A DNA stretch of 63,106 nt, the filler included, from Intoshia linei (lineage: Eukaryota; Animalia; Orthonectida): assembly GCA_001642005.1 (NCBI GenBank). It is 7 parts of 7 records of this genome, joined end to end, with 100 filler letters (N's around TTAATTAATTAA, not from the genome) between each part and the next. Parts side by side here need not be neighbours in the genome. Positions count along the whole stretch, not along the records: positions 60,570 to 63,106 come from LWCA01002284.1; 6 more parts are not named here. One strand, given 5' to 3'. The notes beneath the pieces were generated by a model. It saw only the letters and a list, made by a program, of their open reading frames with translations. It did no database searches and was not told the DNA's origin. The stretch's first letter is position 1, and the number at the start of each line of letters is the position of its first letter. This document shows positions 9,914 through 63,106 of this stretch, in pieces. Made by a program: the position numbers and the translations under genes.

Positions 9914-10179
9914 TAATATATATATTTATTTATATATGACATAATTAGTACTATGATGTAGTTTTGTCGTGATAGATCATTAATAAACCATATTTGCAGT
10001 TCGGTATGGGGTGGAAAAATTTGATAATTTTTTAATTATCAGAAAGTGAAAATCACATAAATTATAATAGTAATCAATATTCCAAAAACACGATTATACT
10101 CACAGATTGAATACAATTGCCAACCCCAAACGAACTATTTATATCGTAAATTATTATACTAATGAAAAATGGATATTAC

Positions 10180-13100: not shown

Positions 13101-13504
13101 GACTTATTTACTTTAAAAGTTACAAGTTGAACGGTTAATTTACCGTAAGCATCAGGTACAAAAACTTTTCGTGTCAAAATTTGTTCATTAACGTTGATTG
13201 GTGCAATTTTTTGTACAGTAGGTGGTATGTATTGGCGAATGTTTAAATTTGGAAGGGTAGGTGGTTTTATTATAACATCATCATCCGAACTTAGTATATC
13301 GTCTTTTTCTGTCAATTCTTCAGAATCTAACGCATGTAGGTCTGCTTTAGATAATTTCAATTCATTATTTATTCGATCATCAAATTTACTGTATACTCTT
13401 ATTTCATCTAAATTTACAGCATCGTGACCGTTTAGTTTATCCTAAACTCAAATAAATTTAATTTCACTTAATCATACATTAAGTTTATCTTTATCAACAT
13501 CCAT
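10180..13504 (-). CDS. SBNO1: Strawberry notch homolog; exons 13504-13478 and 13441-10180; C-terminal exons missing from the contig
   Basis: LSALQLESI, GFLIGDGAGVGKGRTIAG, IIFDECHRAKN, YSSATGATEP, AEMTGRK, ISEAASSGISLH, WSADRAIQQFGRSHRSNQ, FLNRILG, DMGIM. A 36-nt GT-AG intron at 13477-13442 joins ATG 13504 in frame; donor GTAAT at 10179. Paralog number not resolvable. Confidence 0.95.
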
Positions 13505-23200: not shown

Positions 23201-26200
23201 TTTTAATAAAATATTTACTAGTCGATTTAAGTCGACTCCGACAAAAAATATCGACACCGATTTTTTGATTCGGTTCCAATCCCTAGTCATAATCAATTTT
23301 AATCATTATTTATATAATATTCTACGTAATATTTGTTTGTGTGTGTGTTCTACTTTATTTCAATAACTAACAGTATTAGAATTTTATAAAGTCCACATTT
23401 CAATGAAAGTTTTTTCCGGGGGTGTTAGCAAAATAAATTTTAACCCCCCCCCTCCAAACTCACATCTTACGGTTCAAAAACACCAATTGTCCTTTTTTAA
23501 AAAATCAAACGAATTTGAGAATTTAAAAAAATATATATGCTAATATGGATTTTAAAATCATAAGCATTATCATAAATTTAAATTTAAAAAAATTATATCT
23601 TCAGGGCCAAAACCCCAAAGAACCCTTCTTTTTTTAATGAAAACAGATCTAGAATTTAAAAAAATGTACAGGTGGTACAATTGTACCCTGTTAACACACA
23701 TAAAAAATTTCAGTCCGAATAAGTGACGACTTTAGTTAGTTGCTGTTTGTACCAAGTACAAAACAGTCAAGCTAGTTAATTAGTATAATCATTAGTTTAA
23801 AAAATTACACACATTCTTCCATGCCTTTTCAAGATAAAAAGAAAACATCAATTGAGCAATATCGGTAAAACAAGATTGATAAAATCCAATTAAATGTAAT
23901 TGAGGAAAAGACAAATTTACATTATCAATAGAAATGTAAAACAGTTTATTAAACCTAAAACTAGCATCCACATCAAAACTTTCAATTTTAATCTGATCAA
24001 TAAGAAACTGAAAAGATTCCTGAACAACCGAAACATCAAAAGATAAAAATTCGACAAAATAATCGAAAATATTGAAAATTTCCATTAAATACTCTTCTTC
24101 GACATTAAAAATAAATGGAGAAATTTTAACATAAAATTGATTAATTTGAATAAATAAATTTAAATCAAATGTACAAAATACACTAAAAAGTGTGTCTGCA
24201 CAATTCTTTTTTTTAAAAACATTGACAAAATTAAAACAATCACTATTTTCTGCAAATGGACATAAGACGGATAAATCCGACATGGTCATGTAAAAAGTAC
24301 ATGAAACAATATTATCAAAGGATAAATCTGAATCAATTGACAGACTTTGAATATTAACAAATAAAAATTCACTGAAATTATCAATATCACAACATTGTTG
24401 AAAACTGTCTTTAAACTGTTGATAAAATTTAAACTGAAAATTTGAAACTTTAAAAAAAATTTCAAATTTTGTCTTTTTTAACGAATTATGTAAAGGCACA
24501 GACGATTCATTAGGCAATAAATTAATAAAAGAATTTGATACACGAGAATAGATTTTTTTGGAAATAAAATTAGAATCTTTGGATAAAAATGATAATTTAT
24601 TATTTGGTAAATAAAAATGAGGATTGTTGCTAAATTTGACCATATCAGGCAACATCAAAGTAGATAAATTTGCAAATTCAAAATCACAACCTATACCATT
24701 AAATATAAGAGTAACATCAACTAATATTTCATTTATAAAGGTTTTGTAAATTTTAAATTTTCCATAAATATTTTTAAAATTTTCACAATGAATAGAGAAA
24801 TTAAATTGCTTTTCGGTATCATTAGAAAAGAATTTATCAATATTAGAAAAATGACAGAAATTTTCAACATCAATACAATCCACAGAATCATTTAGAGGTA
24901 TAATTATGTATAAACATTTGAAACAATTTATAAAATTATCAATTATAAAATTTTGAGAGGTTGACTTTTGAATAAAAATGACTGTATCATCAAGATCAAG
25001 TAAAGATGATATTTTAAAATTTGATTTAATTTTGAAATTTAATAAAATTAAATCAAAATTGTAATTATTTTGAATAAAAAAATTTGTAATAGGTAAATTG
25101 TAATTAATTTCAACATTAAACCGAGACACAAGTGAATTTTGGTTTTTAAAATGAATTTTTGACCATTTAAAATTTACTGAAAATTCAACTTGATTTTTCA
25201 ACTCGTATTTAAACCCTCTTTTCAATTCGACATATTTTAAAATCTTCAAATTTTGTGGTTCTGTACAATTCCTTGTAGAATCTAGAGAATTTTGTGAAAG
25301 ATATTTAAAATTTTTACACAAAAATATTGGATATTTAGATATAAAACAATTTTCATAATTTAAAAAACCAGATAACCCTTTTAAAATTGTATTGAGCTGC
25401 ATTTCACATTTAAAATTCACATAAAGAATGGAAATGTACATTTCTTGCAATAATTCGTTTTGAGAAAGTGGTAATTTCGTTAAATTTTTTTTCAATAATG
25501 TAAGGGTAAAAATATTTACAAATCTGCAGCATTTTGGTGGTATATAGATATAACAAGGTGTAATTTCTTTTAAAAATGTATTCAATTCATAATGTACCAA
25601 TTTTTCAACATTATCAAATAATAAAAGACAAATTGATATACCAAAATCTAAATTATTGTAAAACTTGACTGGATATTCAAATTTTATGTGTAAAATTTCA
25701 AAAGTATTAAAATTGAAAAAATTTGAAATTTTAACAATAGACATAACATGAGGATATATAGTTTGAAATGGTACATATAAAGATGTATTTTCATTGGTTT
25801 TAATGTTATATAAGCTTTTAGAATTATTTTCAATTAAAAACAAATGTGTTTGTAAAATATTTTTAAAATAATGAATCACATTTTCATTGATACAATTAAC
25901 TCGTGAATTTGCGGGGAAAATAAAATTTTCATTAAAATTTTTAAAAATTAAATCAACTTGTATACAATTCAAAACGTTACATAAAGTTGATATAAAAATT
26001 ATATCCAATATACCACATTTGAAATAACTTTGTAAGCATTTTTCATTTTGAATAATTAAGTTTTTTTCAGATTCGTCCAATTCATCTTTTTTTTTGTTTG
26101 ATTCAAGAAAAAATTGTTTCAATAATAAAATTGGTTTAAATAATAATAATTTTCCATCAGAATTATAATTCAAGTATAAATGACGTTTTGATGATTTGAA

Positions 26201-29200
26201 AAAATCATTACAATAAAATTCATCAAAAATATTTAAATTATATAATGCTAATTTTTGAACCACATTAATATATTCACAAAAACAATCAAATGTCCAAGCT
26301 TGCACCATATTCAAATTTTTTTCACTTTTTTCAACATCTTTTGAAATTTTTGAAAATGACTGTGCTTGATTTAATTTATCTAAACTATACCATGTGCATA
26401 AATCTTGTTGAATATTAAAAGGATTAACAAGATAAATTAAAGGTAAAAAATTTACAGAGATGATGGAAAACTTGATTCCATCAATACAAAATATTCGATC
26501 CGTTACACTAACTTTTACATAAACTCCATCACACATTTGTTTAATATAGATAATATTGATTCCGTAAATTGACAAATTTTTATTGTCTATTTCATTTTCT
26601 AGATTTGTAATATTTGTATTAAATTCCAAAAATTTTAAATTTTCAGAAAAATGAGTCAAAGATAAAACTTTTTTAAATGTACATTGATTTAAGAATAACG
26701 TTTTATTGGTAAATGCAAAACATTTACTTAAAATGTTGAATTCATTTAAAATACACATTTCTCGGCCAGGAAAAAGTTGTACACTTATTCCTTTAAAATT
26801 ATTATTTAAAAAGTGTATATATAACGGAAAAGTTGTCCAATTTTTAACTTGTAGTGTAGATTTAATATAAAACTCTAAAGTATTAATATGAGAATTAATT
26901 TCAATATAAAACAAAACTTTTGAATCAATAATAATTGGAATAGTTTTTTTATTTAAATCAAGATAAAATTTAAACTTTTTATCACTAGTTAAAACCAATT
27001 CAACATGACACGATGAAATTAAATTACATTTTGAGTATTTTTTACAAAAAGTTGTTACAAGAAATATTGAATCTATAAAAGTAAAATCACAATTTGTTAA
27101 ATTAATCAGAGTTGCAGTAGATATTTTGACATCATTTATATCAAAATCATTAATAATGTGTTTATAAAACATGTAAACATTAAAAATTGATTTCATACGT
27201 TGTTTGTCCATATTAACCAAAACTGAAGAAATATCAAATTTTAAACAATCACAAAGTGACAAATTTAAATCTTGACATTTAAATATATTAGAAAATTGTT
27301 GACTTAAAATATTCATAATAAATATTGAGATACCATTGAGTTTTGAATAATGAGATTGAAAATTTGTACTAAAAGAGAATTCAAATAATTGTAGTTTGAA
27401 ATATTCTTGAACATTGAATGTATGATTTAAAGCAAGTTTTGTTTCACTATTTATTAAAGAAAATTTAAATAGTACACTTTTAATAATAAAGTGAATAATA
27501 GATAAATTTACACTGCTGCAATTATTTTTTAAATCATTAATATCATCAAACATTCGATTTTTAGACGTTTGATATTGATTAACAAAATTAATAAGAAAGT
27601 TTACCAAATATACATGAATATTATTTAAATTAATGAAAATTTCATCAAGCATGATATAATTGACAGTTTTATGATTAAGATTCATTCCAGCATAAAGTCC
27701 ATCAACAGTCAAAAGGTTTATAAAGGGACAAACAATTAAAGGAATTGATTGATTATTAATTTGAATTAATAAATCAATTAAACTAATCTTTTTAACAAAA
27801 CTAGAAATTAAAATTTCCAAAGAAAAATGAAAAACAATTTCTTTACAAACCAAATCAAAGGTATCTTTTAAAAAGAGCAAACATTTAGGTAAAAAAGAAT
27901 AATTTTCATTAATCCTTTGTAAAACAGATTTGGTATCTTTATCCACAAATAACGAAATTTTGAATTTATCAAAAAAGAAATGACAATAAGAATTTTGAGT
28001 TAAAATTACATCAAAATTTAATTTCAACGTATCGGTAATTTCATTCTTCAAAAATTTGAATTGTTTCAAATTTATTTCATTTTCCCAAGATTGAAAACAT
28101 GTAATATACAATTTGTAAAAATAAAACAAAACATTTAAATCATGAATATTAACCAAGTATTCATTTTTTAGAGAAACTATGATCCAATCAATACAATTCA
28201 TCTCATTTTTATTAAAACATTGAATAACTTTAACAGATTTAAAAAATTTCAATTTTGAATTACCTTTATAAAAGTTTTTTTCCTCTTTTGGATAAATTTC
28301 AGAGATTAAATCGAAATTTGATACTTGGCATGTGTAAATCAATTTAAAAGATTTGTTTATCAGATTTATATATGTTTTAGGAATTTTATTGTAATCATCC
28401 GTAGTTAATTCAGTACTTTTCATTTCCATTAAAATTAACACTATTGTCCTGTTTATATCTCTTAAATTTAAATAAAATTGCAATTTTTCTACAATAATAT
28501 CAACATTATAAAAAATTTTATTATTTTTATCAATTTTTTTTTCTTTATTGAAAGGCACAAAAGGTAAAAAAGTAGATTGATATAAAAGTGCACAATAAAT
28601 CAACTTTATAAAATCAATATTAACATCAACATTAAATATTAATTTGCAAAATTTAAATATCACAGAATTATCGCTTTTTGAAAGAGAAAAAAATGCAGTA
28701 TATATAGATTGATCAGGTTCAATAGATATGAACAATGTTGAAATGTATTGCAATTCACAGAGAGAATTAGCTTTTACATGATTATAAATGTTTTCATCAT
28801 TGATTGATAATTTTGAAACTTTTAAGAGAATTTCAAAATCAATTTTTCCACATTTAAAAATAACATTTTTTAGTTTACTGCTTTTGTCCATTTTAAATAA
28901 CATTTTTAAATTTTTTTTTAATTCATGTAAATCATTTTCTAGTTTTATGTGACGATTAAATAAAATTGTAAATAAACATTCCATACTAATCATTTTTTCA
29001 AAATACCATTTAATCTGCAAATCAAAGTTCATTCGTAAACTGAATAAAAAAAAATTTACTAATTCAGTTGAACTGTAAATATTCATATCAATTTCATCAT
29101 CAAATTTGATTGAATTTTCAAGTAATACCATTGAACCCACAGAGTCAAAATCTTTTGTTCTAATAATCAGTTTACTTTGAATATTTAATAAAGTATTGTA

Positions 29201-32200
29201 AATAAATGCACAATTGTACAAAAATCTTACATATAAATTGATACAACGTGGAAAAACGTGAAAAAGAATCAACATGGATTGCTGTACATCACTTTGTTTA
29301 AACATTTTATCGTAACATGCAAATATATCACTAAAATATGATAATGAATCTCCAATATTAAAAAAATCGTCAATTTTTAAAACATGATGGCAATGATACC
29401 ACCTAGATTCTAGATAATTCAAAATTTCCAAACAAATTTCAATTTTTATCAACATTTTCGCTTCAATTTTTTTTTTTAAATCATAAACAAAACTTAAATC
29501 TTTTAGATACAATGCCAATACATTTCCTATTCCTTTATCCGTCTTATCCTTAACATTAAACATTTCCTTAACTAAATTTAATTCACTGAAATTTTCAATA
29601 AAAAATATTGACGAATGAGAAGCAATTAAAACAACATTATTGATAGAAATGTCAAAATTTTCTAATATTCCCTTTTCTTCATTTAAATTTGACTTTTTCT
29701 TCATTTCATTAATTTCATTTCCACATTTCTTTGATTCAAAATGTTTATAATCAAAAATTGAAAACAAATCAAATTCACTACTTAAAATAGACATCATTAT
29801 CAAAATTTGATGTAAATATAAAAATGTACCTTTAAATTTAATTAAACAATAAATTTTTTCGGTAAAATTCAAACTCATTTGAACATTTTTTTCATTATTT
29901 AACGTTGAACATATTTGAAAAATTGGAATACATTTTTTAGTAAAATTTTTAAGATAATCTTCACAATATACAAATGCGGAATCTAGATTAAATCTAATCA
30001 TGGAAATTTTAGATTTCGATTTATCCAAAAATTTCATAAAAAGAAAAATTTCATTGAAACAGAAATTATAGTTGCGATATAAAATATTTTTGTAATAATC
30101 AGCATCATCACCTGATAAACAAAGATAATTTTTAATATTTTTTAAATTAATATGATATACCGTACATTTCAATGTAGCAACAGATATTAAAATATTATTG
30201 TACAAATGTGAGCAGGAAAAATTTTTTTCAAATTGATAAAGTTCTCTAACCCTAAAACGTACATCAGCAGATAAATTTTCATTTGAAATTGTGGAATAAA
30301 TCATTCCGAATTCATGTATAGTAATTTTTAAGAGTTTATTGCAATGTTGAAAACACGTTGAATCGCTGTTTAAATTTATGTATACATTATCAATTAGTAA
30401 CTTACATACATACTGATTAAAACAGTATAAATATAAAATATAATTAATTTCCATCTTTTTAAGATTAATTTCTAGACCATTTATATAATTTGAAACAATT
30501 TTAACATTAAATATTATCATTTTAAAATCTAACCATGAATTATTACAAATGTTACCAATGTTTGATAATAAGGGTTCCGTTTTAATAATAATATTCTCTG
30601 TTGAATCCATATAAGGCTTGTAGCGTTTAATATAAACTGAATATATCAATTTTAGCGTATATACAAAATGTTCATTAAATATAATATCTTGATTTGCAAT
30701 CAATAATAAATCTTTACGAATATTAAACATTTCACAATCATTTTGAATAAGATGGATAAAAGATGTGTATAACATGGCAAAATTACACTTATTCATACAA
30801 AAATTTACAAAATTTGACACATTTCCAGAAAAAGTTGTCAAAATGTATGAAAATATAACATTTAGCTTTGAATCATTTTCAATGTGTTTGTTTCCGTTAA
30901 TTGTATATACGTCATAATTTTGATTATTATAATTAATTACCGTATTAATATGGTCTATAGATATCGCTTTAAAATTTAATATACCCAAGTTATCCGACAA
31001 TATATTGAGATTCATATTGGATATGGTTAAAAAAATTTTTCGATCAGACAAATCAAACCTCTAAATTTTTTATTTAAATTTAATTTCTTAAGTTAATAAC
31101 ATTTTAAATCAGTGGTCACATAACTGCGACCAGCGACATGTTATTTATGATGATTTTTAGGTTCATAACCAGGCTCTTCATAAAATAATTATAAGCGCAA
31201 TTATAATAATTGCTTATTATTAATTTATAACATTTATATACATATTAAGTTATATCCTAACTTATATAATATGCTACGCAATTTTTGTTTGTGTGTGTGT
31301 GTTACGCTTTATTTAAATAACTATCAGTGTAAGAATTTTTTAAAGGCCACCTTTCAATTACAGTTTTTTCTGGGACGTATAATAAGAGAAATTTTAACCT
31401 GCCAATTTCACATCTTACGGGTCAAAAACCCCAGTTGTCCCTCTTTTTGAAAATCAAACGATTGGAGAATTTTAAAAATTCTATACGCTGATACGGATTT
31501 TAAAATTATAAACATTACCATAAATTTAAATTTAAAAAAATTATATCTTCAAGACCACAACCCCAATTGACCCTTCTTTTTTTAATGAAAATAGCCCTAA
31601 AATTTCAAAAAATTTACAGGTTGTACAGTTGTATCCTGTTAACACACAAAAAAAATTTCAATCCGAATAAGTGACGACTTCACGGTCAAAAAAACATTTT
31701 AGTATTCATATATTTTTTTTTCGAAATATTTTATTAAAACAAAAAATGTAAAATAATTAACGGTCCGAAAATTAAAAAAAAGAAAGATTATTCTGATAAA
31801 GCTTATTCCAGTTGATATAAATACAAAATTTCAACCGAGAAATCTAAGCATTCCAGATGAAAAATAATTTTTAATATATTATCAACCAATATTTTTCAAA
31901 TATTTTGATTAAAAAGTAATATGATGGTTCCATCTGACACAAATTTGGGAACCACTCCTTTAAAGGATTGATAATAGTTAATAGTAGGATTTTTAAGTTA
32001 GATTTTCAACGTGAATTTATTTTTTAAGTATAATAAAAATGTGCTCTCGGCAGAGCTAGGTCCTGTTTGTACGTAGTATGTAAATTTATTTTTTGGTAGT
32101 ATAAAAATGTTCCCTCGGTAGAACTAGGCTACGGGGATTGATAATAGTGAATAGTAGAATTTTTAAGTTAGATTTTCAACGTGAATTTTTTGCTATCATA

Positions 32201-34467
32201 AAAATGTGCCCTCGGCAGAGCTAAGTGCTGTTTGTACGTAGTACATTAGGGTGCCACACACATCTGAATTTTAATTGCGCGTAGTGAAAATTCGTTGCTC
32301 TTAAGCAATGTATTCACTATGTCGTTTTTAAAATTAACTAAAATGATCTGTTTGATCTGCAGGCTTTAATCAAAGTTTTACAAAATTTGGAACTAATAAA
32401 CATCAGTTCAAACTATTTTACATAATTACTACTTTTAATTCTAATTTTCATCACCTCTACTCGAAATGATTGACAATATAATAAAATTTGTCCATTGTCT
32501 GAAGCGACATACATTTGAGCGATACATCTTAAAGCGAAATAATAATCGATTTCACTAATTGATTATATCACTAGTTGACTGTTATGTACCACGTACAAAC
32601 AGCGTCTAGCTCTGCCGAGGGCACATTTTTATTCTACCAATAAAATGAATTAACAATAAGAAAGTCTAACTTAAAAATGATGCTATTCACTATTTTCAAT
32701 TTTGTATCAATAATTAACGGAATCAGCACGTTAAAAACATGTTTCTGGTAAGTTTTACCAACATTGCAAAGCATTGTAATAAAAATAAAAATAACAAAGT
32801 TGTACTTTTTTGTTGTAGTTTTAGACTAAATGAAAAAAAATCCGAAGGAATCAATTATATAGATTTCCACCCACATGTCATTTTTTATTATCATAATATT
32901 AATGAATTTAAAACTTTTTATTAGAATGTGTACTTTTTATAATTCTAGGACGAGTTTGAATTTAAAAACAAACCACAATTTTATTATTATATTATTATTA
33001 TTCAAAATTTCAGAAATCATAATAATTATTGCAATAATTTATTTTTTCAAATTTTTTTTGCAATAAAATAATGATTGGGCCTGCTCATTATTATAATTGG
33101 ATTGTTTTTAAAATTTGACTATCATTGTCAAAAATTAATTAAAAAATTGGATTTAAAATTAAAAATTCAGTCCTACGTAGAGAATCTCCTGTTTGTACAA
33201 AGTACATAAAATTCAAGCTAAACACAATATAAATATAAAGCTTGAAATCGATTGGAAACTTCACAGAAAGATTAAATAATAATTATAAACATACCTGTTT
33301 TGGTAGAATGAGAGAAAATTTTAAGAGTAAAATATTGATATTGCATAAAACTATAAAATTGGTTGAATCTTTGGAACCAAGACTAGAAGAATTACAAGAC
33401 ACATTATCTGAATAGTGAATATTTTTTTTATCAGCATGTTCATTTTTTCCATAAAAATCTTTAAAAATACCATCAAACCAATAATTACTATCTGTCGTTA
33501 AATCATCAAATTTATCAATAGATTTATCTTTATAACTTTTCTGTTTATTAGCATTAATTTGAGAAATTTGCATTATAACATGACTAACGGTGGAAACTAA
33601 TTTTTTAAAAATATTAAATTTAATAGACGTAATAGATATTTCTGCAAGATTAGTCTGTAAAATATATTTATCTCCACCAACCACATCATTAAAAAAATTA
33701 GCATAAAAATCTGACTTTAAATCATCACCTTGTGTGGATTCAGTTGTTATATATTCATTTTTAATTTTAATAAAAATGGTATCAAAATGTAAATCTTTAA
33801 TAAGGTGCAATTCTTTTAACTTTGAATTTAAATTTTTAAAATAGACATTGCAACCAGAGCAGGATAGCATGCGAGTTAAAATTTTACAAGATTCATTAAA
33901 ACATTCATTATAATTTGATGTATCAAATAAACTATCATTTTGATCGAAATATGTAGATTCATCGTCTGTACATACAGATTTTATAACAACATCACTTGCA
34001 GTCATATTTAGTATAGTTTTCTCTTTGATATCAACGTAAACAAAATTAAAATTTTTAATCTTGTATTTTATATTTGACATGATGGAATTGTAGTATGATG
34101 ATAAATACGAATCTTCTTCTACATTCACATTAACATCATTTTTATCTTCAAAGTTTGATCTAACATTCGTCATACAATTGTCTCCCAATGAAGATGATTT
34201 TAAGGTTAGGTTTGTAATTTCTACTATAATTGGTTTTGACATGATGTAACGCCATTGAATTTGAACTCGGAATTTATCAATTATACCTGATATCAATTGA
34301 ACTGGTAAATTTAAAGACGATTCAAGTTGGTTCAGTTTAATTGATACATTTGATAAATTAAGTTCTCCCGTCCATAAAGAAAATGACAAGTTTAAATTGT
34401 CAGTATCTATAAATTTAGAAATGTATCTTATCAATAGAGGCTCGATATAAGAAGATATGTTAAACAT
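20248..34467 (-). CDS. VPS13B: VPS13B-like bridge lipid-transfer protein, ~3090 aa; exons 34467-33295, 31060-23809, 23055-22879, 21376-21221, 21152-20900, 20580-20403, 20331-20248
   Basis: Chorein-N start SYIEPLLIRYISKFI...FSLWTGELNL...LNLPVQLISGIIDKFRVQIQW matches the VPS13B-type N-terminus. C-terminal ASLSIIGNPAMFIKSIYNG...LVKGLSKG and GSVGLFIKPTIG match the VPS13 C/ATG2-C region. All introns are GT-AG with compatible phases; exons sum to 9273 nt. The last two exons are less certain. Confidence 0.85.
23139..23285. mobile_element. 147-bp hAT MITE
   Basis: TIRs tagggattggaaccgaatc / gattcggttccaatcccta; perfect 8-bp TSD gtcataat. Confidence 0.9.
23309..23775 (+). mobile_element. Non-autonomous Helitron-like element
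   Basis: 3' hairpin ctgtttgtac-caa-gtacaaaacag followed by CTAG|T; body similar to 31255-31690 and ~960-1140. Confidence 0.7.
31255..33220 (+). mobile_element. Composite Helitron-like cluster in VPS13B intron 1 (tandem sub-terminal duplications, inverted copy starting 32571)
   Basis: A|TC 5' start at 31255; repeated ctcggcagagctaggtgctgtttgtacgtagtac blocks at ~32046 and ~32211 and inverted at 32571-32630; degenerate 3' hairpin at ~33188-33220. Confidence 0.65.
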
Positions 34468-35662
34468 ATTTAAAATTGATCAATTATTAACATTCTAAAT
34501 GTTTTGTATATCAAAAAAATATACAATAACAACTTTACTTTATTTAATTCAAAAATTCAATTAGTATTTTACTTGTGATGTTACGTAGAATAAATTATAT
34601 TAAAAGTTTGGTATGTTTATATTTGATGTTTAAAATACACTATAACATGACACACATGTAAGGCATATGACAGAAACCACACACATTTAGTATGAGTTAA
34701 TGATTAACTTAATCGAATCAAATATTATACATCAAAGTATCCATAGAGATATGCCGCTCCTTCGAGCATACTAGTTTGGGCTGTGCTGTGTTAAAAATTA
34801 AATATAATAAATTGATGTATTCAATTTTTTTATTATTTTTAATTTTCAATTATGTATACGTGGATAGCTTATCAACGGTGATATTTAAATTAATCACTAT
34901 TTTTTGATATCTACAGAATCTTTTTTTTACAATTTTTTTTTTGTTAATAATTTGTAAATCAAATTTTTCTTTTATAGGTCGATGTTACCTTTAATCGTTC
35001 TCATTACACACTAAGAGTATTCTTTCGGAAATCTTTGTGATAAGCTATTACTATATAATGTAGTTACTTATATAATGTCTACATGATTTCAATTTAAATC
35101 TTGAATAGATGCGATTATAATCTTTTAAAATGGTATGCCCATTATTCAGGATTTTTAAATTTTTTATAATTATGGAATTGAATTAATCACTTAACAAGCT
35201 CAATTTCTTTTTGAAATTTAAATAAATTTCTCGCACAACTGATGCATCCTATTCGAAAGGATTCAAGTTTTTAAAGTACAATTATCGTTAAGTTAGCCGA
35301 TAAATCTACACCAATATTAAGTTTTAAATTGAATTGTCCATTCAAATAATTTTTTTGTATACCCGCGGATGTTAAAAATGTTCTGTACTAGATATTAACC
35401 TAGGATACTTGGGCTAATTTTAAAATGTATATTATTTTTAAGGGTCCATCCTTCAAATATGATTTTATCTAATATATATGATAATTTTTTGTAGTTTTGA
35501 TAATAATATTCTTTGGGCTTAAGTTTCTAAATTTTGATATATTTTAAAATAAACTGTATACTAAAGTCCCTACTTATTGACAAAATTTGAATTTAAAATT
35601 TATAACGAATCGTGGGGGTTTAAGAATTTAGTGTAATTATGAAAATCCTGTAATTGTAATTA

Positions 35663-38037: not shown

Positions 38038-38137
38038 NNNNNNNNNNNNNNNNNNNNNNNNNNNNNNNNNNNNNNNNNNNNTTAATTAATTAANNNNNNN
38101 NNNNNNNNNNNNNNNNNNNNNNNNNNNNNNNNNNNNN

Positions 38138-44130: not shown

Positions 44131-44448
44131 GAGTGCAAGGTTCCCATTTATATTTTTATAATAAACAATTAATTGTGTTTCTATTTAATTTTTTCTATAT
44201 TGCGTCAATTCTAAACTCGTGGAGTATATAGAACAGCGTTTCTTAAAATTTTTTAAATTTACCAACCCTAGCCAGANNNNNNNNNNNNNNNNNNNNNNNN
44301 NNNNNNNNNNNNNNNNNNNNTTAATTAATTAANNNNNNNNNNNNNNNNNNNNNNNNNNNNNNNNNNNNNNNNNNNNGAACGTTCCTTCAATATTTTAAAA
44401 ACTATAGATAGTTGCAAGAGAACAAAAATGAGTTTGACAAAATTTGAA

Positions 44449-52100: not shown

Positions 52101-54621
52101 AAAACTAAAACAAGAATAACATCTTTGTTACTTAATTAATTTTACCTTTATTTCACTAAATATTTGAAATCTTAATTATATATGTTTATAAAATGCTGAT
52201 TCCTTTAATTATTGATAGATAATTGGTATTTTTAAGTATTTATTAAAATTAAAAACATAAATTGATACTGAATATATATTATCATATTAAAAATGATAAA
52301 ATAGGTTTTATTAATTTTATATTTTCTGGAATTTATGAATATATTTTTGACAATTTTTAGGATTGGACTGTTTTTACTTTATTTTTAATATTATACACAT
52401 ACTGTCTAATAAATTTTAAAAAAAGTGACAATTGTTTTTAAAATTCTTTACGCAAATTTTAACAAAACAAAATTAAGATGGAATAATTCACTTTAAAGTA
52501 AAAAGTAATGTAATATGACGGTTTCACCTGAAACAAGTTTAAGAACCACTCCTTTAAAGGATTGATCATAGTGAATAGTAGGATTTTTAAGTTAGATTTT
52601 CAACGTGAATTTATTTTTTTTATAGAATAAAAATGTGCTCTCAGTAGAGCTAGGTGCTGTTTGTACGTAGTACATAACAGTCAACCTAGTATATTATAAT
52701 ATTTGAGGAGATTCATATTTATGTAAAATTTTTGGAATAAATTTTTTTATATAAATTTGAATGTTAGATTATATACAATGTAAATTAACTTACGTAAATG
52801 ATAATGCAATTATGGCACATATAACAACAATAGCATCAAGAATGTTCCATATATCACGCAGATAGGATTTCGGATGTAAAACAAGCCCTCTATCAATTAT
52901 CTAAATAAACGTATTAAATTTTTTTTATGAATCATAATGTTAAACTATCGTACATAATGAGGATTCGCTGATAATTATTAATAATTATAATTGCATGTTT
53001 ATTATAGCTGAAAATTATAATTTTTTAAAAATATTAATATTAATAAGCGTGGTAATTAGATTTTTCTTAAAGGAGTATGTATATATCTTCATAAATATTT
53101 TTAATCACTTTCAAAAATGTATTTTCTTTTCTAATATCGCATAAAGTATGCAATATTAGATCATGTCAAAATTTTATCGGGTTTTAATGTGTTTTTAAGC
53201 AGATGAAGTTGTTTTATTTCAATATTACCTAGTAGAATATGACCACAAAAAATATTTAAAATGATTTATTCAACCAAATCGGACATTAAAAATTAAATTT
53301 TATCAACTCTTAAAAACAAATTCCTTTTTACAACATTTTTTTGGAATAACCCAATTTAGAAAACCTTAATAGAAAAAATGCAATCATTACGACCCAAACA
53401 AATCCAAAGGTATTGACATGTTACATGTAGTAAAAATGTTAAATAATAAAAAAAATCATGTAATATAATTAAGATGTACAAACTAAATAATTTTAATTAA
53501 TGTTTTTAATTTCAAAATATATACTTATATAAAGTACATATAAGTAATTTAATGTTGTATATAGTTTACTAATTATACATCATCATTTATAATAAAATAG
53601 TGTAATAGTGAAATAAATTTGTTTGTTAAATAAAAAAATACCGGTGTAAAAAAAAATCGCCAAACTATAATATACTATATAATATTTTTAGATAAACTGT
53701 CTTCAGAAAAATTTTTTAGATAAATTGTCCGAATACCATATTGAGTGGTTTAATTTAATTATTCACATAACTCAGAAGTGTTATATTACCTTTAGAATCA
53801 TTTCAATAGTAAATATAATAGTGAAAGCATAATCTATATAATCCAATATATCGTTTCTTAAAGAATCACTATGTACAGGATCTTCTGCGGCCAGAGCTAT
53901 GGAACTTAAACATATCACTATTGTTATAAATACGTCGAAATATTTATAATTAACAATTATGTGAATTAGTTTTCTAAACCTAAGATATATGATTAGTTTT
54001 TATTAAAATGTTGAAAATATAATTTTTTTATTATTTATTATATATATATTGATACTACATTTGTATTTTAAAATTTAGACTCAAATTAGAATATTTAATT
54101 TAAATAAATTAATCTTAAAATTTAGAATCTACTGTCTTTTCTCGATTATAAGCAGACCCCTGAAATACAAATTTTCAGTGAAATTTTTAAATAAATAAAA
54201 TTTGAATATAAGCAGTTTTTGCTTGTATTCGAAAGAAAAAACTTTAAACAAAAAATAGACATTTTAATTTATTTCTAAAAAATAACTTCCTTCATACAAT
54301 AGAATGTCTAATTTATAAGTTTATACTAATTAGAAATAAACTTTTAGTGTATTTTTTATATTTTTCAAGGTCTGCTTCAAAGTCTGTTTTTGATTATAAG
54401 CATTTTTTCTTCTACTCTCGAATATAAGAAGACTTCTTATAATTGACAAAAGACAGTAGTGTATAATGTTAAGACTCTAAATTTTTGACATATGTTTGAA
54501 AGCCTGATATACTTATTAAAAATATTATAGTACTTATTTTCTGACTTCAAAATAAAAAGAGCTCTATATTGATTTGTTGCTGCTGATTTATTCGAATCTT
54601 GAGATATCATTTGCGGCTTTT
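46131..54621 (-). CDS. Voltage-gated calcium channel alpha-1, Cav2 type, domain III to IV-S1; exons 54621-54534, 53979-53790, 52900-52794, 50840-50738, 49353-49193, 48221-48078, 47608-47407, 46295-46131
   Basis: [26 protein letters not shown]4 [30 protein letters not shown], pore loop [10 protein letters not shown]6 [23 protein letters not shown] (Cav2-type wording); all splice phases compatible. Confidence 0.95.
46375..46998 (+). mobile_element. Tc1-like remnant in Cav2 intron
   Basis: [26 protein letters not shown]-terminal Tc1 motif; inverted ttttgagcac / gtgctcaaaa ends. Confidence 0.7.
48619..48961. mobile_element. hAT MITE nested in a Tigger-like MITE (~48319-49047)
   Basis: TIRs cagggcttcgcaac / gttgggaagccctg; TSD atttagca / atttagtc; outer ends ta-cagtggaactcgt / acgagtttcattt-ta. 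Confidence 0.75.
51072..51580. mobile_element. MITE with TAGGGTGTCACA termini
   Basis: tagggtgtcaca / tgtgacatccta; degenerate 8-bp flanks acgatcat / accggcat. Confidence 0.6.
52520..52689 (+). mobile_element. Helitron-like 3' end
   Basis: gctgtttgtac-gta-gtacataacagt hairpin then CTAG|T; the same block occurs at 58345-58398 and partly, inverted, at ~60170-60300. Confidence 0.7.
54132..54456. mobile_element. Tc1/mariner-type MITE
   Basis: TA-ctgtcttttctcgattataag / cttataattgacaaaagacag-TA. Confidence 0.8.
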
Positions 54622-55475
54622 CTATTTTAAAAATATTTAAAAAGTATTTTATTTATTATTTATATTAATGTTAGTAGATTTAAAATAATAATATATTATA
54701 TGATATTAAATATTTATCTTAGTAAATATTTTAAATTCAATTAATAAAATTATAAAATTGATAACAATTTTTCAATATACATCCAGACCTGGAGATACTG
54801 ATACCTGTGATTAGTCAATCTACTAAAATACATAAAATAATCTCAAATTTGTTATTAAAACCATTTTCTGCCCTATAATATATATAATATAATAAATAAT
54901 AATAAAAATATAATATAATATATNNNNNNNNNNNNNNNNNNNNNNNNNNNNNNNNNNNNNNNNNNNNTTAATTAATTAANNNNNNNNNNNNNNNNNNNNN
55001 NNNNNNNNNNNNNNNNNNNNNNNTTGCAAAGGATTGTAATAAATATAAAAATGATATTAACAAAGTTGTATTATTTTAGTTTCGTTGTTGTAGTTTTATT
55101 CAAAATGTTTTGAAAATGAGAATTTGAAATTTAAAAACTGCGTAGCAATGAAACAAATTCCGAAGGAATGAATTATATAGATTTTCACCCATATTTCTTT
55201 ATTGGAAATGTGTAGAGGTTCAATACACACTTTTTTCTGAAATTGTAGGATCAATATTTACATTTTCAATTTTTATTTTAATCGAAATATTTTGAAAAAT
55301 ATTGGTTGAATATATTAAAAGAATTTTTCATCGGAAATGCGTAGATTTCTCGAATTGAACTTTTGTATTTATATATACTGGAATAAACTCTATCATATTA
55401 TAGTCATATCATAGTAAGGATATACAAATATATGTAATTGTAATTAATAATTATACAAACTTTGTATAAACATAA

Positions 55476-58400
55476 TTATTCTTCAGAGCTTTGACTTAAA
55501 TTGAAGCTGTCATCTAAATAAAATATAAAAAATAAATATAAATTTTAATTTAATAATAATAATTATTAATCTATTATAATAGATTAATATACGATACCCC
55601 TAGATAAATTCGGAAAATATGCCAAAACTAAATAGTGTAATGAATTCACTCTATTTTCCTAATAGTGTTCATTACAGATTTTTCAAATCGTATGAACAAG
55701 TTCGTGTTGCGTATCACCATCAAAACGGACAACAAATTTTTTAAATACATTGACCAATTTTCCTAGAATTTAAAAAAAATATTCTGAACAGCTTATTCCA
55801 GTTCATACATATACAAAATTTCAATGTACATCATTTCTGAATCTAAATGTTACATCAGATTTTTTTAACATAACTTTGCAAACAAATTGAAATAAGCCAG
55901 CTGAAAAAAATAATGATACATATAATCAAACCACTCGAATCAGAGACGCCAAGCATTTCCAATAATTCGCAATCATTTACTTGTTTCAAATCTACACTGT
56001 CTGATAGTAATCTTGATTCTTTTGCTTTTTCAATATTTTTTTCGGACAAATTTGATTTTTCTATAGATTCATTATTGTTAAGTTGTTTGACCTTTCTAAT
56101 TAATGTAAATTTTACCGGAATTGAAAATTGTATGCAAGTGTAAGAAATTATGTAGTTATATTTTAGTAATCAATTCAAAAAATTGTTTAACCAAACCTTA
56201 AATAAAAAATAATTTTATAAATTCTAAGCCAAGATATTATCAATATTTGTTGTTCAGTTAAGGCTGGTTGAAAATGAGGTTTAATTGATACATTAAATAT
56301 GTACATTTTAAATGTATATTTCTATATTGTACTTTGAAAACATGTCATTAGCTTACCTGAGAATTCGTTAAAGTGGATTTTGTAGGATTGATCAAATCCA
56401 ATTACATAAGTATTACCCAATCAAATGTATTAACATAACGTTTATTAAATTATAAGGTTTAGAAAATTTTAATTTTGCTATAATTCTGGAATCTAGAATC
56501 TAGAATCTAGAATCTAGATAAACAATATAAATATTCAAACCTAGTGCATTTGACTTTAACGTTGCATGATATTTTTTCCAAAATAAATTTTTTTTCTATA
56601 GTGTCATAAATCAAAATACATTCCTTTGGTACATTTCGATTAATGTTTCCCTTAAATAAAATTCCTCGATTTGTCTAAAAGTTACTAATATATATAATAT
56701 ACTTTAATTAACAAACAAATTTTAAGCCAAAAATTTTTATACGTGATCAATGATCATAGATAAGTAGTTTTGGCTTTAAATTTCATATAAAATAAACTAA
56801 ATTGATAGTTTTATACTAAGACTCTTAGTACAACTCTTTACTACTAAGTAAAGGACTCCTTTGTAAGGATTAGGTACACCAATGTTATATTGTATTTAAA
56901 TTTACATCCTATATGTTGACAATTTAGTCTGTTTTATTGTTTTAACAAAACGGCTAATTTTTGTTGCATACATGGAATATGTGTTTACCCTTTGAGGCAG
57001 TGGTTTTCAACCCGTGTTCCGCGGAACCCAGGGGTTCCGTGAAATATAAATGCGATATTTTTCAATTTAAAGTTTTTCTAAATTACTGTGGTATGCAATA
57101 AAACAACATCATTTCTCAAATTTAAATCAAATAAGTTTTAATAAAAGTTTTATACGTTGTGAGTATGGGAACCTGAAAAATGATGTTAAAAAGTAATAAT
57201 AATTCAGATTATCTTTATGAGAAATATTGTAAAGAAAATAGGTTTTTACTGGCCCAACTCTCTTGAAATAATTTAAATAAGTTACTTACCTCTTTATAAT
57301 GAGAGATAACTAAAAAGTTATCTCTGTCGGGCCTCGATGCTTCTTCGTTGTGTGAGGTAGGCAACTGGTTTTACCGGCTAAATTCCGTGTGTTATTAATT
57401 TTTTAATTAAAAATCAAATTGTTTTATGTATGCGACATGCGAAAAAAATTTTTGATTATGCTTTTAGGTGCCGCGATTTTTTGAAATTTCATAAGGGTTC
57501 CGCTTAGTAAAAAAGGTTGAGAAACACTGCTTTGAGGAATGCATTACACATATACATGTAAATTTATTTTCACAAAGTTTATTCATTCCACATATAAATG
57601 TAAATTTAATATCATGAAATTTATCCATTCCACCGTTTCATAAAGGGGTTTTTACATAATTAGAATGATTGAATTTTTATCTTTTGATATATTTTACCAT
57701 ATTGTGTCAATTCCTGAATGATTTAATTATGAAATAAGCAAATTTCAGGTTTTAAGTATACAGTGGTTTCTGTTCAATATGAATACTGTATAATATGAAT
57801 TCACGCTTATATGGATTTCATGAAAATAAAAGTTGTTTTTGTATAATATTTATTATAAGAAAAAATTTTTAATATGAATTTGTGTAAAAAAACATCAATT
57901 TGTATTAATTTTCTATCACGTGACTTATAAATTTCAGAAAAGTAACCATTCAATATGAATTTGAATTTGAAGAGGAAAAGATTTTTAGATAAATGATAAA
58001 ATAAAATTCATTAAACTGACGAATATTCAAATCGATCTCAAAAATATTTAGCCACCAAACACTCAATTTCAGTAGGTTTGATAAATAAGTCGTTAAAAAA
58101 TCGTGAAGAAATCCTTAATTGTAATAATTTAAATTTGAATCAGAAGAGACAACCTTGCCTAAGGAAATCAATGAAAATTGAATAAGTGGTTTCAACGTCA
58201 ACGGACATTAAGTATAAGTGGCAATATACTGAAAGAAATGGCGCTGGAATAGATTAGGAATGACTTAAATGATTGTTAATAATAAGTAGCATTTTTAATT
58301 AAGATTTTATTATTGAAATTATTTTTTTGATAAAATTAGATAAGTCCCCTTGGCAGAGCTAGGTGTTGTTTGTACGTAGTACAAAACAGCCAAGCTAGTA

Positions 58401-59021
58401 CTACTATAATATGGTAGCCCTAATTTAAGCCTTCTACAATATTTTTAAAATTACTGTCTGATTTAACATTGAAATGTCTATTGAATTATCGTCAACAGTT
58501 AACGTTGAATCGGCTTGATTAAATGATTCCGGAATGAAATCGTCTAAAAATTAAAAAAAATTAATTTATTTAATTAATTATTTAATTTAATTATTTAATT
58601 TAAATTAAATTAACTAATTTCTATCTCTATATCAATCCCTGAAGGAATGGCAAGTAACGACTCCCTTAATTATAAAAAAGTCACGTAATTTTAAAATAAA
58701 CATAAACTTGTTTATAAACTCACACTACACAGACTTCATAAACTTGTTTGTTATAGTCACTAATTCAAATTCACTGAACAACCGTTTTATCTTTAAGATA
58801 AATTAACTTCAAGGATAAAGTTTAACCTTGTTGATTGTTAATTGATACATTAGTCTAATGAAATAAATTAAAGTAAAACCTTTATAAGCATAGAAATAGT
58901 AAATTAAATTGTAAAAATTACATAAATTAGTTAGAAAAGTTGAATTTTGACTTTTTGTAAAAGAATCTCCAATATAAATTTTATTTTCATTACATTGTTG
59001 CATAAAATTTACAAATTTCAT
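55476..59021 (-). CDS. EAF: ELL-associated factor (EAF1/2 homolog); exons 59021-58922, 58543-58455, 56674-56541, 56095-55932, 55513-55476
   Basis: IYIGDSF...FLTNLYDFIPES (cf. LRLGESF...FHTIRYDFKPAS); LFKGN...KECILIYD...FILEKISCNVKVKCTR (cf. VFKGN...KDCVLII...YVLEKLSSSIQVKKTR); acidic end FNLSQSSEE (cf. LQLSESGSD); phases compatible. Confidence 0.88.
56998..57529. mobile_element. hAT MITE
   Basis: TIRs cagtggttttcaacc / ggttgagaaacactg; perfect 8-bp TSD ctttgagg. Confidence 0.92.
57760..58260 (+). mobile_element. Tigger/pogo transposase N-terminal remnant
   Basis: TA-cagtggtttct terminus; broken KRKRF...SQKYLATKHSISVGLINKSLKNREEI...SISGNILKEMA (psq/CENP-B HTH-like). Confidence 0.65.
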
Positions 59022-59072
59022 TTTCGAAAAAGAAAAATTTAAAAATAAAGTTATTGTATTATAGAATTATTT

Positions 59073-59933
59073 ATGGACCTACCAAAACACAAAAAATCAA
59101 AAAATTGTATATTATTAACTAGTACTGAAGAAGAAAATTTAAAATATCAAGATAAATCAATTTTATCTACCAGATTAGCTGACAAAATTGAAAAAAATGT
59201 TGAAATAAATTGGGATAAATTTTACAACCGGAACAATGATAATTTTTATAGAAATCGATATTGGTTTAGGAATGAATTTCCGAAAGAAATTTTTTGTATT
59301 CAAAATTTACAGTTTCTAGATGTTGGTTGTGGAGTAGGCAATTTATCTTTTCCATTATACCAATATGTTTGTAAACTTAAATTAGATTGGAATTTTACAT
59401 TGATTGATTTTTCACATAGAGCCATCAAACTTGTAAAGGTAAACGTTTTTTGTTTATAAATTATAAATATAATTATTTTAATGATCACTGATTACGATTT
59501 ACATGATTTACTGATTATCGGAAACAATTTTATTCTTTTTACTAATTTATGATTTTATTTTATATTTTTTTTCTAGGAAAACCAATATTTTAATAAAGAT
59601 GAAATGACCGCATTACACTTTGATATAGTTCAGGATTTAGCATTTGATGGAAAAGTTTTGCAAATTGAAAAATTTAATTTTGTGACCCTAATTTATGTTC
59701 TATCAGCAATACACCCCAATAATTTTTGTAAAGTTTTAACCAATATTTTTAAGGTATTTTATTTTATCTATTTATAATTTTCAATTTTTAGATAATGAAA
59801 CCTGGTGGATATCTATTCTTTAGAGATTATGCCATCAATGATCATGCAATGATTCGTTTTAAGAGAGATAGAAAAATATCTGACCAATTGTACGTTAGGC
59901 AGGATGGCACAAGATCTTATTTTTTTGAATTGA
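59073..59933 (+). CDS. METTL6: tRNA m3C methyltransferase METTL6; exons 59073-59438, 59577-59753, 59792-59933; 3' exon missing
   Basis: NWDKFYNRN, LDVGCGVGN, DFSHRAI, VLSAIHP, KPGG...FRDYAINDHAMIRF, YVRQDGTRSYFF. DHAM and RQDGTRSYFF are METTL6-type rather than METTL2-type. Confidence 0.92.
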
Positions 59934-60407
59934 GTAAGATTTCAAACTTATTATATATTCAAAGATAATAACAAAAGAATTATCAAGAAAAGTTCATCAA
60001 TATTACGCTGATGAATGAATTATTTTTAATTTGATTATCTGATTACATTACATAAAAAAGTGTAATTTTTTAACTACTGTACATTAAAATTTTTAAAGTA
60101 TAATATGCAATAAGTCAAGGCCCAATTTATGTGATAATAGGTTTACTATTATATATTACGTAAAAACGGTATCTAGCTCTGCCGAGTATCGACTTTTAAT
60201 TCTACAAAAAAATAAATTCAATAATAAAATCTTAGTTAAAAATGCTACTATTCACTATTATCAACCCTTTAAAGGAGTGGTTCTCAAACTTGTTTCACCA
60301 CGGACCGATCATATCACATTACCCTTTAATTGAAATTGAATTATTCCCACTTAATTTTATTTTGTGAATCTTTGTGTAAATAACATTTTTTGTGTTATTT
60401 GAATATA

Positions 60408-60469: not shown

Positions 60470-60599
60470 NNNNNNNNNNNNNNNNNNNNNNNNNNNNNNN
60501 NNNNNNNNNNNNNTTAATTAATTAANNNNNNNNNNNNNNNNNNNNNNNNNNNNNNNNNNNNNNNNNNNNAAAATTTTCAGTTTTTGTGATATATTTAAA

Positions 60600-63000
60600 T
60601 ACATTATGGACAAAATTAAATGAGTTATTGGAGCTTCAGGGCTGTACGTAGATATAGTTGTTCTAGCAGGTCTATAAGCAAAGAAACCCGTACCAGTATA
60701 AAGTCCTGACCACCTCTTCATAAGATGGTAAAGTGAAATAGGGGCCGAACATATTTATCGGCATTTGCATCTGTAGTTTTCCCTTGTAAGCAAGCACCCG
60801 AATCCATTTGTCTGACAGCTATTTGCGGTCTAGCGAATTTAATCTCAGTATCATCAAACACTAGGAATAGCAAGTTCCAAAGCAGGAAAGGAAACCCAAA
60901 CAGCGAGTAGTATAGGTCTAATACTAGCAGCCTCAGGAGAGACAATATCAGATATCAACTGTACTTCAACTTTCCACACAGGTCTAAGCCCAGAATAGGC
61001 TGAATGTCTAAAGTAAGGTAGATCCATTTCCTCCATGTATCCCTGCACGTCAATAGTACGTGTAACTTTTAAATAATTCATGGCAAGATAAGAATAGGAT
61101 GGAGTAGCAAATATTGCAACTCGAGCCGCTATTATTGCAGATGCACTAAAATGAAAATACAATTTAACACCACTGCGTGCACAAGCAAAATATTGTGCCA
61201 GGTAACCAGCAGGAGTAAAGACGCTACTGCCTAAAAAATTATTAGATATGTGTAAAGTAAGCGTGAGGTCAAGAATTTTATTTATATTAAAGAAAGTCTT
61301 CCATGTATAAAACATTGGAATTTCGCCAATAGCTCAATCGACATATTTTCTTTTTTTATTTCTATGGGTGACTGTTTATCGTCAGCCCTATAAGACAAAG
61401 TCAAAGCATTTGAAATTCCAACCGAATGCGAGGTTGAGTAAGCGTTTCTTGCAAATAATGCAGGGCCACTTTCAGAACGAGGGTGCGAAAAACCTAAAGA
61501 CGCAGCCAAAGATATAAAGTTAAAAGCATGGCCAACAAAGGTTGTTATATCTCCCAGGATAGAAAAGAAAGTCTGAGTCCAAGTTCCAGTCATTTCTTCT
61601 TTCTCTTTTTTAGCACTGTGTCCATAAGCCAAATGTAGCAAATATTCCTCAGTAACCATAGATGATTCACTGTCTGATGTTATAAGTTGCAGAGCCTTGT
61701 CTATCTCCATAAGTCTAGCTATCTGCCTATCTACATCATCAGCTTCACTTTCCTCTTCACTTATCCCAGAGTCTGATTGCCCCCATGCAATAGCTGTAGC
61801 TAGTCCAACTTCAGAAAAATCATTATACAAAAGACCAGTTTGACCAAGATAACCAAAAAGGCGAACATTGGAAAAACGAGCCCATATCAAAATCTGAGGA
61901 GCATCGAGATCTGAGGGCTGAATAGGAGTTAACTTATAAAGATCAAAATGACAAAACTTGCTAACGTCTGAAATTAAATTACTAGTAAGATCCTGTGGAG
62001 GTTCAGTGATTTCACAATGAGTGCCAATCCAATTCAACGGGTAATGCCATTTACAAATATAAGTAACAGGTGGACCTTGCGTAATCGGAATAACTTGATG
62101 TGGACATTGAGATGCTGTAGAAACATGGTCATAAGGACTCCAATCTGATTGGTGGTATTCAATGGTAATTCCAGCTGTTATAGTAATTAGCTATCTATTT
62201 TGTCCCATTCCTGGTCTTATAACACCAAGAATTTGGCCATAATGAAACTTGGTAGCTACGACATGTATTTCGACTTCAATATAAAATCTAAAACCTCTTG
62301 CTTGAAACAATCTATCACGAATATAAGATTGGTTCAACAGGAGCATAGTGGGATTCATCCTAACAAATGGTGTTGATGTCGGATCAGTATGATCTAATGT
62401 AATAGTTTTAAGTAGAAAGAATCTCTTAAGAGACTGAGAATATTCGCGACCCCACTCAAAACTAGCATCTAACGTAAGAAGTGCAGAAGCAGTAATTGTT
62501 GGTAAATCACCTTCAAGTTCAACAAATTTAGTAAGATTTTCAGATTTCATAGTCTTTTCAATTATTCCTATTTGGGTTTGATCTATATTAGCAGATTGTC
62601 CAGTAGTAACTAATGTACTATTTTCAAGATAACCAAAAGAAGGATCCAAAACGAATTCTGAACCAATTGGCCTTTTATTACCTTGCATATATTTCATAAG
62701 AATGGTATTATAATCAATCTTTTGAAAGTCATACTTAACGATAAAATCTGAAAATTCATTCAATTGTTGATTATATACATGTTCTCCACGTTGAAAAAAT
62801 TCATAAAAAGCACACTCTAATAAGGTTTGACATAATTTTTGCATTGACCAATCTCTTGTTTCAGGAGTTCTTCTAACGTATGATATATTGTCAGTAATCT
62901 TCTTTACTTCCATTGGCATATACTAAACTCCAGATTGTTTAATAAAGTAACGTTGCAAGAATGTAATTTAATTAATGTATTTCAGATTTTGTCTATTTAT
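60600..63000 (-). pseudogene. Endogenous picorna-like (+)ssRNA virus fragment: RdRp C-terminus plus capsid VP2-VP4-VP3-VP1(N)
   Basis: RdRp motif E ITFLQRYF (62967-62944) and thumb YEFFQRGEHVY; jelly-roll motifs VVATKFHYGQI, ASQCPHQVI, IWARFSNVRL; VP4/VP3 site LGF/SHP; VP3 TPAGYLAQYF, TIDVQG, DLPY; VP1 SLYHLMKRW; no introns; in-frame stops and frameshifts. Confidence 0.9.
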
Positions 63001-63106
63001 CGTGAATAATTTGACATTTTGTCAAAATATCGTTTGTGTAAGATATCGAGAATAACCTGTATCTCTTCATAGCTATATTTAATAATTTTAATTTTTAAAA
63101 TAATTC

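Follow-up and report, generated by a model that had tools for sequence, protein, structure and literature searches.

A decayed, probably endogenous picorna-like element of Intoshia linei with polymerase and capsid in one reading frame

The element and its polymerase-capsid junction

The window (the whole stretch of DNA analysed, 63,106 nucleotides) consists of seven Intoshia linei contigs, the last of which is filled by a viral element. Since these unlinked contigs are joined by an artificial linker containing TTAATTAATTAA (six identical copies, at 8909-9008, 14736-14835, 38038-38137, 44277-44376, 54924-55023 and 60470-60569), the genes left of 60570 are no neighbours of the element and were dropped as its genomic context. 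An earlier note on this DNA had read the junction within the element correctly but had left out that 60570-63106 is a separate contig. The following features were assigned:

60570..63106 (2,537 bp), no strand: separate Intoshia linei contig, filled by the viral element
60470..60569, no strand: artificial linker (44 N + TTAATTAATTAA + 44 N), non-biological
62977..63106, no strand: flank without detectable viral homology, likely the host side of the insertion, with multi-copy sequence inside
62596..62967, minus strand: C-terminus of the RdRp (motif E FLQR, thumb, disordered linker), with a stop at 62925-62923
62593..62607, minus strand: predicted cleavage site of a 3C-like protease, TTGQ/S, separating the RdRp from the first capsid protein (cut position 62596/62595)
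61777..62595, minus strand: first jelly-roll capsid protein, VP2-like by fold, with a stop at 62193-62191
61618..61776, minus strand: extra peptide of 53 residues, acidic and partly helical, with putative boundaries at the predicted sites AWGQ/S and AYGH/S
61489..61617, minus strand: VP4-like segment ending at LGF/SHP (motif G[FLWYM][SACG]xP)
60808..61488, minus strand: second jelly-roll capsid protein, VP3-like, with frame changes near 61306-61330 and 60857
60570..60807, minus strand: degraded start of a third capsid protein, VP1-like, from the match to the relative P0006; boundary set by eye, contig ends inside

The GC content of the element contig was 0.352, compared with 0.228-0.311 in the six other contigs of the window, and its CpG observed/expected ratio was 0.59, compared with 0.84-1.10 in six host stretches; per frame, this ratio was 0.49-0.60 in three element frames and 0.79-1.05 in three host frames. 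Elsewhere in the window, a reverse transcriptase fragment lies on another contig at 37297-37902 on the plus strand (RVT_1, E 8e-7, narrowly below the cut-off). A methyltransferase-like gene at 59049-59933 (plus strand), which we take to be METTL2/6, contains GT..AG introns (59437-59574 and 59752-59789) that are spliced in the runs X2 and X3. Very high-copy host repeats occupy 55024-55387, 58300-58481 and 60120-60301 (summed depth in the thousands in both X1 and X2). Host genes on the minus strand presumably resemble strawberry notch (10154-13441), a VPS13-like protein, here with one exon of 2,422 codons (23792-34479), and an exon of a voltage-gated calcium channel (53781-53999).

The minus-strand frame 62922-62194 is stop-free over 243 codons and leads from the RdRp thumb, including YEFFQRGEHVYN...DYNTILMKY, into a jelly-roll capsid protein. 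Not one of 500 shuffled versions of the contig contained a stop-free frame of that length (longest, 170 codons). The earlier claim that neither stop, intergenic region nor frame change separates the thumb from VP2 is borne out. The range given with that claim (62191..62967) is indeed open at the junction, but two stops outside the junction had been passed over, one in the RdRp tail (62925-62923) and one inside VP2 (62193-62191). The other breaks are a frame change near 61306-61330 and more below 60857; there is none between thumb and VP2.

When the frame 62967-61285 was translated with X at its two stops (P0005), its first ∼100 residues matched the RdRp end of P0006, and the predicted Q/S cut fell at residues 124/125. 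AlphaFold2 (32-row alignment; mean pLDDT of the model 67.6) predicted helices at residues 21-94 (pLDDT about 85-95), a low-confidence, disordered and poorly conserved linker at residues 95-138, and a jelly roll at residues 139-371. Among the PDB matches listed for this fold, 47 of 50 were chain B in capsids of hepatitis A virus, cricket paralysis virus and other picorna-like relatives of these, a chain that we take to be VP2 by convention. For the next frame (P0003), the predicted fold was another jelly roll (pLDDT 88.7). Its matches mix chains B and C, so that the fold search does not separate VP3 from VP2, and the label VP3 was therefore given by position. Two tandem jelly rolls were thus folded from the element, and of the third only a degraded start is present: homology to P0006 spans about 62967 to 60611 and reaches residue 2320 of P0006, in the third capsid protein. 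In relatives, the third jelly roll is seen as CRPV_capsid matches in P0009 and, weakly, in P0015. Pfam matched none of the three element frames, PDB sequence searches with P0001, P0005 and P0003 returned nothing meaningful, and a word-based search with P0001 recovered nothing beyond the database record of the element itself (P0004, the I. linei hypothetical protein A3Q56_08327, on a contig of 2,537 bp).

The position of the GQ/S site that had been put forward as the likely boundary (62596/62595) is exact, and the site lines up with an AxGQ motif that recurs at boundaries in the closest relative. It reads TTGQ, not AxGQ, and its counterparts are AVGQ/A in P0006 and ADGQ/S in P0046; by alignment, TTGQ/S, AWGQ/S and AYGH/S of the element correspond to residues 1662, 1932 and 1979 of P0006. 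In that protein AxGQ occurs six times (at 884, 1150, 1662, 1932, 1979 and 2248), compared with 0.27 expected, a count reached in none of 2000 shuffles. The motif was also enriched in P0046 (three sites; 5 of 2000 shuffles) and P0008 (five sites; 1 of 2000), and was not enriched in P0007, P0010 or P0012 in the same shuffle test. GQ is absent at the junction of a second I. linei copy (P0011), and the 2A-like motif DxExNPGP is absent from all 15 proteins bearing the RdRp-to-capsid junction. The extra peptide is common to the element, P0006 (47 residues, flanked by AxGQ sites) and P0046. The motif G[FLWYM][SACG]xP followed VP2 in 25 of the 27 proteins tested; we take it to be the VP4/VP3 maturation site, as in dicistroviruses, and took the VP4 label from the dicistrovirus segment order. 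Processing at the predicted sites would yield the order RdRp, VP2, extra peptide, VP4, VP3, VP1. In Beihai barnacle virus 4 (P0031), residues 1757-1781, in the slot between VP2 and VP4, matched C2H2/dsRNA-binding-type zinc fingers, and a similar zinc finger was found at residues 474-498 of P0018.

Relatives, genome layout and phylogeny

A phmmer search over 1.84 billion representatives returned 40 matches. With the cut-offs adopted here, 19 of them contained RdRp and capsid in one chain, 19 only the capsid, and two neither. The best 12 of the 40, one of which is the element's own record, all contained both in one chain. The closest complete ones are Logan polyproteins, P0006 (2,453 aa), P0046 (2,466 aa) and P0007 (2,436 aa), each a single Hel-Pro-RdRp-capsid chain, which are 47%, 48% and 36% identical to the element over the RdRp-to-VP3 stretch, have a GQ junction like it and, unlike the broken element, are intact and near complete. 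In P0006, helicase, 3C protease and RdRp precede the capsid in the same chain, and its alignment with the element covers 557 columns (query 1-554) with 18 gap columns. The nearest named relative, Cryptolin calicivirus 1 (WOC29232.1), is likewise a single polyprotein (2,625 aa; 32% identical), but lacks the extra peptide between VP2 and VP4. In the wider clade, Beihai sesarmid crab virus 2, Beihai barnacle virus 4, Sphaeripse virus, Mute swan feces associated picorna-like virus 3 and fesavirus 1 are single-ORF, nonstructural-then-structural Picornavirales, 26-34% identical to the element. In P0011 (38% identical, on a 14,058-bp contig), the RdRp again runs in frame into the capsid. In IMG/VR, the three loci listed of the four found each have one long plus-strand ORF across the match, and a metagenome scan gave one locus, equal to L003 in length and ORF match. 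The 5′ leader of the relative L001 contains an exact 23-base direct repeat (1-23 and 272-294). Two NCBI fragments, P0076 and P0077, on contigs of 946 and 717 bp, are 71-79% identical to the capsids of P0006 and P0046.

Many of the capsid-only records of 950-1,040 aa start with Met, and the four that were checked lie on contigs of 8.6-9.4 kb, which suggests that these capsids are separate ORFs. The text available from one study describes bat felisavirus as dicistronic with a short intergenic region and fesavirus 1 as monocistronic (PMC5364608). The capsid of bat felisavirus is related to that of the element, yet its dicistronic layout differs from that of the donor. On the capsid tree, with 35 of 38 rows labelled, the label (one ORF or separate ORFs) changes at least five times. 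Layout is therefore labile across the wider clade, in which mono- and dicistronic forms are mixed.

The capsid tree contained 38 rows and the RdRp tree 33, the element filling 19% of the RdRp columns; P0001, P0002 and P0004 (the same element), P0035 (short and patchy) and the cluster duplicates P0045, P0060-P0064 and P0067 had been dropped beforehand. Both trees contain a clade of six rows (the element, P0011, P0006, P0046, P0007 and Cryptolin calicivirus 1), with support of 100/100 in the capsid tree and 100/99 in the RdRp tree; the wider clade in the RdRp tree has 17 rows (100/99). By RdRp and by capsid, the element nests in the cluster of Beihai sesarmid crab virus 2, Cryptolin calicivirus 1 and fesavirus 1, and the wider group is this unclassified cluster, dicistronic members included. 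The phylogeny of RdRp and capsid for which the earlier note had called is thus congruent and places the element with single-ORF polyproteins, which, together with the one-chain layout of the best 12 of 40 matches, upholds its proposal of a donor from a monocistronic, nonstructural-then-structural clade. Its alternative wording, a new lineage, holds only at about the level of a genus, because the three nearest relatives are Logan contigs without names.

Decay, genomic setting and origin of the copy

The element is present in two runs (0.95 of its words in X1 and 0.79 in X2), each from a different study, with eight years between them. In X1, 60570-63030 lies in one contig, though X1 may be the source of the assembly and hence not independent; in X2, most of the element was recovered in pieces, including the junction at 62563-62944. 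Only two letters differ from the window, both common to X1 and X2, and none at the breaks covered by X2. For the neighbouring host contig, introns are retained in X1, which is therefore DNA-like, X3 has spliced forms, and X2 has both, which indicates that the same organism is present in X2 but does not tell RNA from DNA. No RNA run was among those listed as containing the element. X3, which has spliced contigs only and looks like RNA, has next to no words in common with the element, a result without bearing on expression. X5 and X6 gave no match to the element and X5 none to the neighbouring host contig either, which does not prove absence.

Viral homology ends at ∼62976, where a multi-copy sequence begins (62974-63061) that has several different flanks in both runs; its depth in X1 is 146-249, compared with 22.6 for the element. 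The X1 contig spanning 60570-63030 crosses this boundary, and a profile of RdRp motifs C-E had no match in any of the six frames of 62956-63106. The element thus has 130 bp without viral homology at one end, while its other end is the contig end inside VP1. Three more related I. linei models, all hypothetical proteins, were found: A3Q56_06002 (P0011), A3Q56_06784 (P0035) on a 10,533-bp contig, and A3Q56_08461 (P0037; 1,836 bp, 59-61% identical). The 14,058- and 10,533-bp contigs are longer than the virus contigs of 7.6-9.5 kb. P0037 ends in a non-viral tail without a Pfam match. A 1,248-base contig of X1 matches 61107-61260 and 61621-61656 at ∼80%, a second diverged copy and perhaps that of P0037. 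Presence as DNA and disabling changes common to samples, two hallmarks of an endogenous element, were both found, and the element is likely an endogenous viral element.

A dicistronic donor, with RdRp and capsid brought into one frame by a post-integration deletion, is extremely improbable. Such a history draws on the dicistronic forms in the wider clade (bat felisavirus, and the capsid-only half of the matches) and on the poor conservation and disorder of residues 95-138, yet over these residues the alignment of the element with P0006 has hardly a gap. Motif E and the FHY motif of the capsid are 236 residues apart in the element and 237, 237, 243 and 242 apart in P0006, P0046, P0007 and P0008, a spacing that leaves no room for a deleted intergenic region. 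The agreement of the two trees and the same fusion in the divergent copy P0011 also speak against a deletion, as does the AU test: forcing the element into the felisavirus/fesavirus cluster, a group picked after the tree had been seen, changed the log-likelihood by -93.9 units (p-AU 2.7e-6). A deletion is thus largely refuted by the single-ORF nearest relatives. The earlier note had named bicistronic nearest relatives and a fusion by deletion as the finding that would overturn its reading; what was found instead are single-ORF nearest relatives, a spacing within 1-7 residues and congruent trees. The RdRp is in frame with the capsid because a single reading frame was present in the donor, as it is in the nearest relatives, and this layout is almost certainly native to the donor virus.

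A native layout would also be expected if the DNA copy resided in a co-sequenced organism, for example, the nemertean that I. linei parasitises. The contig is almost wholly viral, its GC content and CpG ratio are unlike those of the host contigs, and X2 carries a different organism label from X1. This origin is nevertheless unlikely: the depth of the element in X1 exceeds that of the listed, single-copy-like pieces of the neighbouring host contig (2.8-10.8), as would hardly be expected of a contaminant, although depth is no copy number; the host contig and the element occur together in X2; the same assembly has four related gene models, two of them on contigs >10 kb; and the multi-copy flank is abundant in both runs. 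Even less likely is a contig derived from replicating virus or free cDNA, with stops that are assembly errors or readthrough signals. Its composition is not yet host-like, and the spliced contigs in X2 mean that the X2 copy could come from RNA, but two in-frame stops and several frame changes are unchanged in two studies eight years apart, the frames of relatives are open at the element's breaks, and X1, with its introns, is DNA-like. Integration in I. linei itself is highly probable, even though the short non-viral flank, the depth above that of the host pieces, the GC content and the CpG ratio all weigh on the other side.

The element is, in all, very probably a broken DNA copy of the part from the polymerase end to the capsid of a single-ORF picorna-like donor, likely inserted in the I. 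linei genome. The donor would translate one Hel-Pro-RdRp-VP2-X-VP4-VP3-VP1 polyprotein, which its 3C-like protease would cut at AxGQ-type sites, TTGQ/S included, and VP4 and VP3 would, by analogy with dicistroviruses, be split at GF/SxP on maturation. A retroelement reverse transcriptase may have copied the viral RNA into germ-line DNA beside a host repeat, and the copy would have decayed since, with no working protein made.

Host and comparison with known viruses

The earlier note flagged a layout that is usual in this clade; what is new is the host. Named relatives come mostly from crabs, barnacles, clams and bird or cat faeces, and the available portions of two studies suspect that the actual source is an unseen parasite or the diet (PMC9241645, PMC7019641). 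Copies in the germ line of an orthonectid would link these viruses directly to a small parasitic spiralian. Four I. linei "hypothetical proteins", 38-61% identical where they overlap well, are viral debris. A literature search with mostly open-access coverage found no paper title on orthonectid viruses, a weak negative, and "Intoshia" does not occur in the main text of PMC11097642. We tentatively propose, with a little less than an even chance of being right, that orthonectids are natural hosts of a genus-level, single-ORF picorna-like group with several independent germ-line entries in I. linei (the first viral record for orthonectids), and that the accessory peptide is released by the protease. 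Because the slot between VP2 and VP4 is taken up by zinc fingers of the dsRNA-binding type in Beihai barnacle virus 4, this slot may serve counter-defence.

The Hel-Pro-RdRp block of Picornavirales is present in the nearest relatives, the element retaining only its RdRp end, and of the three tandem jelly rolls (pseudo T=3) the element folds two, the third being partial. The RdRp of P0006 matched PDB entries 8iib/8iic, presumably a dicistrovirus polymerase, at 1e-29, the next 3D polymerases at 1e-17, and 1khv, presumably a calicivirus polymerase, at 5e-12. Wenzhou picorna-like virus 38, Rudphi virus 2, fesavirus 1 and bat felisavirus lead the named rows among the BFVD fold matches. In the accessible part of a seabird study, Cryptolin calicivirus 1 shares a cluster with Beihai sesarmid crab virus 2, with Wenzhou picorna-like virus 38 and with Rudphi virus 1 (10.1101/2025.06.19.660416). 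Fig. S1 of PMC9241645, as available and with unsure topology, places the cluster next to viruses of flatworms and apart from Caliciviridae, Marnaviridae and fisavirus 1; the text of that study describes Sphaeripse virus 1 as from a trematode, with host unconfirmed and family unassigned. Passages in two further papers treat the cluster viruses as invertebrate picorna-like viruses (PMC8624288, PMC7019641).

The "calicivirus" in the name of the nearest named relative misleads. Caliciviridae have one major capsid protein, VP1, with T=3 (PMC7011698), whereas the element has two tandem jelly rolls with picorna-, dicistro- and iflavirus chains as best folds, and membership was rejected. Caliciviruses also have two or three major ORFs, the VP2 ORF being 3′-terminal, whereas in L001 and L003 a single long ORF occupies the plus strand, with none downstream at cut-offs of ≥100 or 150 aa (the 3′ end of the element is missing). 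No convincing calicivirus-type repeat of a 5′ motif at the nonstructural/structural junction, a feature tied to subgenomic RNA, was found in L001-L005, which are distant relatives whose 5′ ends may be incomplete. Iflaviridae and Picornaviridae were rejected as well, since the capsid is C-terminal, not N-terminal, to the replication block.

Dicistroviridae have the order VP2-VP4-VP3-VP1 and a GF/SxP motif. The element has a like gene order, its second-ranking fold match is chain B of CrPV, and it carries GF/SxP between VP4 and VP3, a motif that other families share and that is not diagnostic. Membership was nevertheless rejected: there is no intergenic region or IGR-IRES, and the frame is open in the element and in all of its nearest relatives. 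Some Marnaviridae are monocistronic with a C-terminal capsid. Posa-, husa- and fisaviruses share this layout with the donor (PMC5364608), but form separate clusters in the published trees as far as these are available. The posa-like viruses and Marnaviridae, which the earlier note had offered as examples, are therefore probably not the home clade, being set apart in the available published trees (PMC5364608, PMC9241645). In our RdRp tree, the single-ORF outgroups P0044, P0050 and P0056 are far off, named Marnaviridae or posavirus references not being among its rows. The layout shared with these viruses is probably convergent or ancestral and not a sign of membership: the donor works like a posa-like virus or a monocistronic marnavirus with a dicistrovirus-type capsid order.
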